This document shows positions 18,916 to 22,297 of a stretch of 33,245 nt of DNA, piece after piece. The translations under genes and the position numbers were made by a program. Source of the DNA: Fimicolochytrium jonesii. Lineage: Eukaryota. Within the stretch, counting starts at the first letter, position 1; each line of letters begins with the position of its first letter. Under the pieces are notes generated by a model, which worked only from the letters and a program-made list of their open reading frames with translations, made no database searches and was not told the origin of the DNA. The stretch spans positions 558,001 to 591,245 of the forward strand of contig NW_026515685.1 of assembly GCF_025526975.1 (NCBI RefSeq), written 5' to 3'.

Positions 18916-21900
18916 CTACACCAAAAATCTCGGCTGCGGAAAAGTTTTTTCGCAGGAGCGCGATGTCATGCTTGTGGATCCTGGAGCATCCCGCTAAGAT
19001 GCAGAGGATTGTTTAGTGTACGCAGACGACGTGAGCAAAACTGGTACGTCCGCACTTACAGAACAGCTCTGGGCTTACCCATATCCCTTTCTGTGGTTTT
19101 CCATCCGGGCCCTCTCTCCCACGGGAGATGACCGCTTGTGGCAATGTTTTGATCAGCACCCAGTGTTGCTGGATGGCTGACGCTGGGAACCACCAGTCTA
19201 AACCGGCTTTTTCCGCGCGACTACTCCCGGCGCGACCAGTCCGTGGGAGCGGAGGAGTATTCTGAGAGACGTATCGCAGGCACGCAGCCGCAGTCTCATA
19301 AAGCGTCTTGACTGGGACGTTGGGCTCCACATCAACGCCGATATGCGGGGGTTGTTGAAAGGCCGAGGCTTCCGCTAATGCCTTCCCCTTCTGAGGCTTC
19401 CTCTTCCTGTACACGTTCGAGGCGTCCTTCAACTTGAATCGGTTGCGAAGTTCCTTTTTGAATTTGTTCTTCTCAGCTGTGGTTTGATCTGGACCCTCGT
19501 ATTCCTCGATGTGAATAGTTTCATCTCCCTCTTCTCTCGGCCGCGTGACTGTATTGACGTATCCGAACTCAGGCAGGTCTCCACACCGCCATACATAATA
19601 ACGGAGTTTCACAGTTCCAATCTCCTCGTCGGTACCGGGGTCTATAGGATCGGGGTCCAATTGCGGATCCCCTTGAGTTACGGACACAGCGTGATTCGGT
19701 GCGTCAGAGGACGGTTGGAATGGCGGAGGCGACGACGATTCCCTGGCAACGATCCCATTTTCTTTCGTTGCAACAGGGGAAAAATCCGATGCATCTTCTA
19801 GCGTTGGGGCCTGGTTGACTGATGAACCCCTGCGCAAGGCTTTGCCCTTGCTTCCTTCTTCCTTCGTTGGGGGAGCCTTCCGTTTTTTTACCCCGCTCGT
19901 CGGTTCTCCCTCCTTTGGTAAATCCTGCGAATGAATTGTGGACGGCGCGTTGGGGGAAGAAGAGAAGGCCCCAGGGTCATGCAAATTGGCCGTAGGTAGG
20001 GGCGCTGTCGTGGGAGCAGCCGTGTGCGGACCGGAGGTGTCCGCTTCGGCCTCGTCCAGAGGGTTCATCCTATCATCTAAATTTTCTAAAGCTTCCCATG
20101 ACTCAGGAAGCAGGTCAGGGTCCGCCGTGAGGTCAAAGGCATCGAGGATCCGCTTGACGGTATTCCGATGCCGTGTGTTGAAATCCGAAAACAGCCATGT
20201 TTTGACATCACGGAGTGATGCGGTACTGTGAAATGTGCTGCTTTGTGCTCCGTCAAGGAAGTAGGTGTTTCTTTTCCTCTGATAATCCCAGTCCGATGCC
20301 AGTCCGTTCTCCACAGCAGAAAGAAGAACCAAATTGCCCAGCATATGAACGCAGGTCAGTCGTTGTTCCTGCGTCCAGTCTTTGAGCCATCTGCGTCCCC
20401 TCCGTGGATTCTGGGGAAGAATATGCTCTAGAGTCCCAAAGTACAGATGTTGCACCAACGCATTAGGCGCGAGCACGCTTTCATACTTCCGGAGAATGTA
20501 GTGTCCTCTCCGGCGATTTTTATCACTTCCATGAAACTCCATCAAAGGCAGTCTTTTGCCGACTTCTTCTTTCAGTCGGGCAAATAGATCGGCATCTATC
20601 AAAGTCTTCAGAAACGTCGGCAAATCGGCGTCTATGGGGATTTGCTCGAGTTTACAGCAAATGACCTTGACTGCCTATGACTATCGGTCAGCACACCCGA
20701 CGGGTCAAGCGTTTCGAAAAATACTCGCACCTTTTCCCGCTCCTTCTTGAGATCCTTCGCATCGCAGAGGAAGAAGAGCCCAAAGATTCGCTCGATACTT
20801 TCCAACGCTAGCGTTAAAAATTCAAGGGCGGAGGATACTTCAGCATCGGAAGCTAGATTCATGCAGAATCGTTGATAGGCCTTCATCAGACACGGAAGCC
20901 ATATGCGGCGACCTTTGGATTTTATAATGTGGTTCAGAAGCATGATCGAATGGGAGAGCCTAATCTTCAACTTGATCCGCAAGCCGTTGGTTTTCGCGTC
21001 AATCTCTCTCAAGACAGGAGCGAAGGTGCCCAATGCCTCGAAACTCCCTTGCGTCTTAACTACCAGCATACAGTCCATGAAAGGTCGAAACCATTCTGCA
21101 CCGAATGCCGCAGGATCTTGGAAAGGACTCGGTTTCATTAAGCCTAAGCGTTCATTTAAGTCCATATTCATGATGGCGTCGAAGTTCTCGTCTCCCATGT
21201 TGTAGCAGAACACTTCCATCATCAGGACAAAACCCTTCTCAAACTCTTCGCGTCCAAGTGTCTCTTCATATATGTTCCAAGCATGTATGAAACTACTGCG
21301 TTGAGTCTCGCTCATGCTCAAGAATGCTGGTCCAGTCATGATGTGTGCCCGCGATTTGTCGCATGCTGACAAGCTGAGCCCTGTCTGTTAAGATGGGGAT
21401 AGGGTTAGTCGCCGCGCCTGGCGAAGGTGGAGCCGTCTCCATACCGTATTCAGGGTATCGAACATCTCGAACGCCTGTTCCAGATCGGAAGTCTCAGTGG
21501 TGGAGAAAAACACTTTTTCGAAAAGAAAGTCGACATATTCTGCAAATTTTTCGGCGTCCGTTTCCTTGAATCTGCTCTTTAGAAAAGCCTGAGTGTGCCT
21601 GAAGTTTTGTCTGCGATTGGCAAAGCAGTGAGGGGAGAGAACGCAGAAAATAGGCATGGGTCTGCAAATAAATCGCAAAACTCCGACTTACATTACGTGG
21701 TCCCATGCGGTGTTTTCATGCAAACCACCTGGCGGACGATGGCTTGTCGGTAACTCCAAAAAGTCGACTCGAAAATCCGTTCGTTCATATGAAATAACAT
21801 TTATAGCGGGCGCTGGATTCCGCAGTAATTGACGGGTTGTCAATCTGGGACGTCGGCAAATATAACCACTCATCTGCTCAAGGAGCTCGGGGCTTGCATT

Positions 21901-22297
21901 GAAGCGGGTTTCCAATAAATGTCGTGCGGCGCTGATGAGCAGCCCCAATGTGGTAAGGCGCTGCTGACCATCGATGACGAGATGCTTCGAACCTTTCACA
22001 TAGACCACTAAAGAGCCAAGAAAATAATAGGGGCGTTCCTGGCAGAAAGAGTCGTAAGTCCCTTTCAAAAGCCTGTCGACGTTCGCGGTCGTCCATTCGT
22101 ATTGTCTTTGAAAAGCCGGAACCTCATAAGCACGAGTTCCCAGCGTTGCTCCAACGCTGATAACAGACGAGACTATAGGCGCCGCCGGAGGTGGCTCGTC
22201 GTAATCTAGAAGAGTTTGTCCAGAAGAATTAGAAAATCCCGGTCGGAGGAGGGGCAATATCTGAACGATTTTGTTGTGTACCTTCCTCCATAGACAT
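18916..22297 (-). CDS. GmrSD/SspE-like protein: DUF262 (ParB/Srx-fold NTPase), DUF1524 (HNH nuclease) and a C-terminal extension; five predicted introns
   Basis: DUF262 motifs VPAFQRQYEW, YFLGS, VIDGQQRLTTL and FEMFDTLNT|TGLSL. DUF1524 motifs TLEHILPQNP and LGNLVLLSAVENGLASDWDYQRKRNTY. GT-AG introns 22206-22281, 21611-21691, 21385-21444, 20675-20730 and 18994-19059 give one open frame. The first and last exons are less certain. Confidence 0.88.

Follow-up and report, generated by a model that had tools for sequence, protein, structure and literature searches.

A gene of the soil chytrid Fimicolochytrium jonesii, located at 22297-18916 on the minus strand of the 33,245 nt stretch of DNA that we have analyzed (the window), encodes in six exons a GmrSD-family protein of 1007 aa, P0001, in which an N-terminal DUF262 and a C-terminal DUF1524 domain are fused in a single chain. 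Our preferred explanation is that this intact fungal gene, likely an old acquisition from a prokaryote, produces an NTP-gated, modification-sensing nuclease that defends against foreign DNA; the function is predicted, and we place the explanation as a whole somewhat short of an even chance.

The six exons (22297-22282, 22205-21692, 21610-21445, 21384-20731, 20674-19079 and 18993-18916, minus strand) translate into P0001, which is identical, letter for letter, to RefSeq XP_052924173.1, an entry titled 'uncharacterized protein' on a 591-kb contig. Before intron removal the family motifs are carried by three long minus-strand frames at 18916-22297, and it is the excision of five introns of 76, 81, 60, 56 and 85 nt, all of them GT-AG and three with a CTRAY/TTRAY branch motif, that joins the motifs into one frame, as the original prediction had it. 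Introns 2 to 4 are required by the frame. Both intron 2 (21611..21691, minus strand as for all five, GTAAGT..CAG) and intron 3 (21385..21444, GTATGG..CAG, within the FxxxN-x-x-G motif region) are multiples of three in length with in-frame stops, and the Pfam match is continuous over the two junctions, while intron 4 (20675..20730, GTGCGA..TAG) shifts the frame, which its removal restores in the linker. Intron 1 (22206..22281, GTACAC..TAG) is dispensable, the frame being open from 22521 without its removal, and its donor GTACAC is weak; intron 5 (18994..19078 from the annotated donor) has an alternative donor at 19059 that would lead to a protein of 1083 aa whose end is acidic and whose stop lies at 18707. 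Splicing of all five introns is predicted from the sequence and the public gene model. Contamination, already argued against in the original prediction, is ruled out by the introns, the fungal nuclear neighborhood (otubain, MFS, DIT1, P450 and Ty3), the TTAGGG telomere and the 591-kb contig.

Profile searches with the spliced protein place both Pfam domains above their cut-offs in the one chain, confirming the predicted pairing: the DUF262/GmrSD_N NTPase domain at aa 32-247 (21340..22128, minus strand, coordinates from the exon model; 93 bits for a cut-off of 33, E 3.2e-26) and the DUF1524/GmrSD_C HNH domain at aa 494-621 (20162..20545, minus strand; 63 bits for a cut-off of 23, E 3.6e-17, pLDDT about 83-96 by block). 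This is the fused GmrSD architecture, and the two Pfam matches are separated by a linker of ~247 aa, modeled as helical, which lies within the 200-400 residues typical of the family. All of the motifs expected from the earlier reading could be located, including the HNH His and Asn. The QR, (I/V)DGQQR and FxxxN motifs of GmrSD_N are P35-x-F37-Q38-R39, I83-D84-G-Q-Q-R88 and F227-x3-N231, and the HNH motifs are E533-H-I-L-P-Q and L562-G-N564-L-V-L-L-x3-N573, so that the catalytic E/D-H-N-N set, (E/D)HxxPQ plus L(G/A)NLxLLxxxN, is complete in E533, H534, N564 and N573. Compared with the motif list in the accessible part of Machnicka et al. (PMC4619093) only NxxFxxKK is a variant, reading D578-x-x-Y-x-x-K584-R; the changes are conservative, the near-invariant K584 is retained, and D at 578 occurs in 4 of 258 relatives.

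In order to gauge conservation we have used 386 proteins, of which 353 contain both anchor motifs, thinned to an alignment of 259 rows. P0001 shares a mean identity of only ~23% with its 258 relatives and nevertheless matches 25 of the 26 columns in which at least 95% of them agree, DGQQR and E-H-N-N included, and 27 of the 31 columns at the 90% threshold, where eight of the conserved columns had served to select the rows and where 27 or fewer are kept in only 6 of the 259 rows. The unfiltered alignment of 117 rows has 20 invariant columns, all catalytic residues among them. Because 25 of the 26 near-invariant positions are kept at ~23% identity the sequence points to long purifying selection on P0001. 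Its end branch is long (3.31 as against a median of 0.57), with neither a stop nor a frameshift in the gene. The departures at conserved sites are G for D at 54, D for N at 578 and T for the usual R at 233. The last of these need not be decay, since six further natural sequences combine T233 with K242 (the pair is present in 7 of the 10 K242 carriers), and from the alignment the two residues are possibly a compensating pair. A GmrSD subgroup (L037, L060, L106, L112, L157 and L160) has T for R after FxxxN and K after the conserved D, as in P0001.

The best non-self scores are 146 bits (best 120 of 330 matches) and 140.5 bits (best 150 of 7702), with no close relative of P0001 among the matches listed and no orthologue retrieved. 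Named relatives, a minority of the rows, are all bacterial or archaeal among the matches listed, with the exception of P0001 itself; as judged from sequence profiles its closest kin are stand-alone HEC-06-like bacterial GmrSD proteins. Because of this distribution of relatives a transfer from prokaryote to fungus, as had been proposed, is probable, and the gene is likely of prokaryotic origin and acquired long ago. We have also scanned 56 of the 81 ORFs that neighbor relatives at 15 bacterial or archaeal loci (4-kb flanks). Restriction-modification genes are present at two loci and no Dnd or Ssp family match was obtained from these ORFs, so that the relatives appear mostly to stand alone.

Phylogenetic analysis places the gene in part, by a weak grouping in three of the four larger trees, and identifies a donor lineage in none. 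The grouping is with P0308 and P0241, and all three proteins are on long branches. P0308 is a Logan protein of 1108 aa in which GmrSD_N and GmrSD_C are fused to an OTU deubiquitinase and an FYRC domain, all above Pfam cut-offs, and the presence of OTU and FYRC suggests that it is from a eukaryote. The trio is recovered in an 80-row mixture-model tree (SH-aLRT 94) and in a 163-row FastTree (83, with P0001 joined to P0308 at 93), and in a 30-row tree the partner of P0001 is P0308 (88); without P0308 P0001 is unplaced. In the 259-row FastTree P0001 is found instead with three proteins, one from Pseudomonadota (0.78), apart from P0308 and P0241. Three rare residues are common to the three proteins, among them K242 (present in none of the 256 other rows and in 10 of 631 in the full set); as many as three are reached by 5 of 3000 random triples, for a trio picked after the fact. 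It is possible from these comparisons that P0001, P0308 and P0241 form an old eukaryotic branch of the GmrSD family. No relatives of P0308 were found in metagenome contigs. A giant virus may have been the donor of the gene; among the matches listed there is no close viral match with a single protein, and an alignment search of viral loci, of which at least 80 were kept and 68 placed in a tree, gave none that is sister to P0001.

Following the core is an orphan C-terminal tail of ~370 residues (aa 640-1007; 18916..20107, minus strand), for which model confidence is largely low. In the AlphaFold model pLDDT is below 50 over most of aa 663-1007, and the tail alone, modeled from its single sequence, has a pLDDT of 39 and a best Z of 3.8. 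It has no family match in Pfam, PHROGs, PDB sequences or Atlas, a search of NCBIfam gave no matches, and for none of the best 150 of 7702 relatives does the best-matching stretch lie in the tail. A by-eye likeness to KilA-N or FYR domains finds no support in Pfam, PHROGs, PDB sequences or Atlas, and the pairwise comparison with the FYR region of P0308 gives p=0.25. Two basic motifs, KKRK at residue 713 (19888-19877, minus strand) and RKRK at residue 873 (19408-19397, minus strand), are likely nuclear localization signals.

The gene is subtelomeric. Along the window fungal genes (otubain, MFS, DIT1/PvcA and P450) give way to a truncated Ty3 gag and then to retroelement pieces and terminal TTAGGG arrays, with 10.9 kb between the start of the gene and the TTAGGG-array sequence end. 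Between 5848 and 15800 a gene of the DIT1/PvcA (isocyanide/dityrosine synthase) family, MFS transporters and a cytochrome P450 are clustered, possibly as a subtelomeric secondary-metabolite cluster in a chytrid, and the DIT1 gene apparently continues into an MFS frame. The Ty3 gag (16329-17852, plus strand) has a zinc knuckle and is cut off before the protease, ~370 nt ahead of the left repeat described below. On the telomere side (26000-33245) are a Ty3/chromovirus integrase-chromodomain piece and repeated units of 270-300 nt interleaved with 13 TTAGGG arrays; several of these units start directly at a telomeric tract, which suggests telomere-targeted insertion or repeated healing. A 458-aa frame at 29589-30965 (minus strand), with a telomeric tract at its boundary, may encode a mobile-element protein, and its one family match, to a zinc ribbon at the C terminus, is weak (E 0.005). 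CpG o/e is 1.03 in the GmrSD gene, 0.93 in gag and 0.50-0.68 in the telomere-side repeats; with telomeric tracts masked, values at 27000-33245 are 0.50-0.61 as against 0.97 in host genes. The loss of CpG in the subtelomeric repeats suggests past CpG methylation, and hence host 5mC, on compositional grounds. GC3 is 0.54 in both the gene core and gag and 0.59-0.68 in four host ORFs.

A repeat of 44-61 nt is present in three copies in the window: an outer left copy at 18217..18261 (plus strand, 44-45 nt), an inner left copy of 61 nt on the same strand (22496..22556), upstream of the start codon, and an inverted right copy at 22867..22928 (minus strand), 95-96% complementary to both left copies. 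Two inverted pairs result. The outer (45 nt, 96%) encloses 4.6 kb and has the form of the terminal inverted repeats of a non-autonomous DNA transposon; the inner (61 nt, 95%) encloses 310 nt and makes up a hairpin unit of 432 nt. What lies within the outer pair is exactly the gene and, downstream of it on the minus strand, a fragment with a histone fold (18247..18555; match to Pfam Histone for aa 15-78 with E 1.6e-11). In a three-frame reading this fragment has no clear start and a stop inside the left repeat, and from its sequence is probably broken; we call it H3-like by eye, from what we take to be H3 motifs. As a fused seventh exon it is unsupported, only weak donors being available. The outer flanks share weak further inverted similarity (p=0.007), which between the outer left copy and the right end extends outward for ~100 nt; for the inner copy no such similarity is seen (p=0.72). 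A search for a target-site duplication up to 90 nt from the repeat cores gave a single candidate, of 2 nt, where the true ends may be decayed, and no transposase was found inside the repeat-bounded segment. A search of metagenomes for the repeat pattern gave 0 matches. From this layout the gene and the H3-like fragment probably constitute a non-autonomous transposon. Neither the inverted repeats nor the H3-like fragment nor the telomere figured in the original prediction; all three are new.

These features strengthen a reading in which the nuclease, together with a histone-fold decoy, is selfish cargo that a non-autonomous inverted-repeat transposon of ~4.7-4.9 kb would use to spread itself, the nuclease acting as a toxin, whether meiotic or post-segregational, or against competing elements. 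The exact bracketing of gene and fragment by the repeats at 18217, 22496 and 22867-22928, the similarity of the outer flanks and the subtelomeric position among Ty3 remnants all speak for it. We nevertheless judge it unlikely, as a target-site duplication longer than 2 nt and an internal transposase are lacking, no antidote gene is seen, and five introns together with long conservation suit a host gene that was captured later.

In the defensive role that we prefer, the DUF262 domain would bind and hydrolyze NTP via DGQQR, the P35/F37/Q38 pocket would sense the modification state of DNA, and the state of DUF262 would gate the HNH domain (E533-H534-N564-N573, Mg2+), which would nick or cut DNA with a foreign base modification in the manner of stand-alone type IV enzymes. 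The added tail would direct the protein to the nucleus, the presumed site of giant-virus DNA replication or integration, and the inverted-repeat transposon ends probably carried the gene to its subtelomeric site. In bacteria DUF262 hydrolyzes NTP and gates the HNH nuclease, according to the accessible text of PMC8565348 and PMC11662687, and equivalents of the residues reported there as essential for defense are present in P0001; those required by BrxU correspond to Q87/R88 and E533/H534 (PMC8565348, accessible text). A target for defense exists, since F. jonesii carries a giant-virus capsid gene, as reported in the part of PMC13533422 available. Several considerations count against a defensive role: the shortfall at the 90% columns, with G54 and D578; the location of the gene next to a telomere and within what is probably a transposon, its neighbors including a truncated gag and a broken H3-like fragment and its GC3 resembling that of gag; and, by analogy, the host 5mC suggested by CpG loss, which could be open to attack by a BrxU-like enzyme. 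The closest fold to the model, DndI, is moreover of the opposite polarity.

Polarity varies in the family, BrxU cutting modified DNA and DndI and SspE sparing marked self DNA (accessible text of PMC8565348 and PMC11662687). Were P0001 to work as DndI and SspE do, a host mark, plausibly 6mA, would spare DNA and unmarked viral DNA would be nicked, the nuclease and a host adenine methyltransferase making up a restriction-modification-like pair. This can be argued from DndI, the top match in both structure and profile, whose P23/Y25/Q26, with Y30 as the SspE counterpart of Y25, align with P35/F37/Q38. In addition, F. jonesii is named among three chytrids with more than 1% 6mA (PMC11258239) and integrated mycodnaviruses in Allomyces have reduced 6mA (PMC13533422), in the available portions of both papers. 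However, the P-x-Y-Q pocket is family-wide, the aromatic position being Y in 513 and F in 112 of 632 sequences, and hence is not diagnostic of DndI or SspE. In Phycomyces, moreover, 6mA clusters downstream of start sites (PMC11258239, available portion), a pattern by which much host DNA would stay unmarked, DndI without its mark is toxic (PMC11662687, available portion), and the relatives are without modification partners nearby. We consider this polarity rather improbable. It is because the prokaryotic relatives are without a nearby modification partner and the pocket is not diagnostic that we favor the reading of a foreign mark. Equally improbable in our estimation is a composite, restriction-modification-like immunity in which a GmrSD nuclease of an old eukaryotic branch, with chromatin domains elsewhere in that branch, would rely on 6mA or another host mark to separate self from giant-virus DNA and would be moved between subtelomeres by an inverted-repeat element that includes a histone-fold gene.

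We give slightly less credence still to an internal role in chromatin, whereby the protein would read modified bases (5mC, 6mA or oxidized forms) on the repeats of its own genome and nick them for silencing, repair or elimination. The NLS-like motifs of the tail, the fusion of its tree neighbor P0308 to OTU and FYRC, the adjoining H3-like fold and the CpG loss in nearby repeats would all fit, yet a recognizable chromatin domain is absent from the tail, and the patchy distribution and very long branch would seem to suit conflict genes better than housekeeping genes. That the gene is a silent or recently dead remnant with its frame still unbroken, as G54, D578, the broken neighbor and the subtelomeric position might indicate, is very unlikely, since the coding sequence runs for 3 kb with no stop and no frameshift, the splice sites are intact and every catalytic residue is retained.

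The novelty of the gene is lower than had been claimed, since GmrSD homologues were already counted in eukaryotes in 2015; in the part of Machnicka et al. that is available these are three (a diatom, a chlorophyte and a heterolobosean), with no fungus among them (PMC4619093). A literature search, with subscription journals outside its reach, found no paper on a fungal GmrSD. Other bacterial defense modules, OLD-like, are described for chytrids in the available part of a preprint (bioRxiv 10.64898/2026.08.18.745644), and the Mycodnaviridae paper, in its available part, asks which defenses fungi deploy against giant viruses (PMC13533422). A restriction-type nuclease gene in a chytrid is a concrete candidate: a single protein with known catalytic residues, for which phage and DNA assays are established. 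If it is active, modification-sensing restriction would be added to those immune modules of bacteria that eukaryotes have put to use again, and a nuclease able to recognize a new DNA mark might be obtained from it.

It remains to compare P0001 with known systems, for which we have built an AlphaFold model from the 117-row alignment, with both domains confident. The eukaryotic homologues of Machnicka et al. belong, like P0001, to the GmrSD family, and none is studied in the accessible part of that paper (PMC4619093). Among known folds the closest to the model is DndI (Z 21.0, rmsd 6.4, 516 residues aligned), followed by SspE (Z 19.5, rmsd 21.2) and BrxU (Z 12.4), and among PADLOC models HEC-06 and 'Orf5' score best (138-156 bits; E 4e-46 and 1e-40). 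DndI of Salmonella enterica Cerro 87 (PDB 9JFL; PMC11662687, accessible text) superimposes with a TM of 0.55 on target, and its DGQQR, HNH and P-x-aromatic-Q pocket align with those of P0001; identity is, however, 14%, and DndI relies on phosphorothioation by dndBCDE. No ssp or dnd modification genes were found in the 16 + 4 ORF pieces of the window that were scanned. SspE (PDB 6JIV, 7DRS) has both domains in common with P0001 as well as the N-T-T-G variant after FxxxN, but has ~770 aa where the P0001 core has ~630, a different domain arrangement (rmsd 21) and a need for sspABCD. Of the GmrSD/SspE architecture originally predicted, the two-domain GmrSD part holds, whereas SspE, at 78 bits in PADLOC, is not the nearest relative. 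The type IV enzymes BrxU and Eco94GmrSD (PMC8565348, accessible text) are stand-alone fused GmrSD proteins that share their essential residues with P0001; BrxU is more distant (profile E 6e-4), and its specificity for modified cytosine is not transferable. HEC-06 and 'Orf5', stand-alone anti-phage proteins described in the available part of bioRxiv 10.1101/2024.01.29.577857, have a core of ~560-620 aa with the same domain order and require no partner gene; P0001, at ~25% identity, differs from them in being eukaryotic, in its five introns and in its tail of 370 aa.
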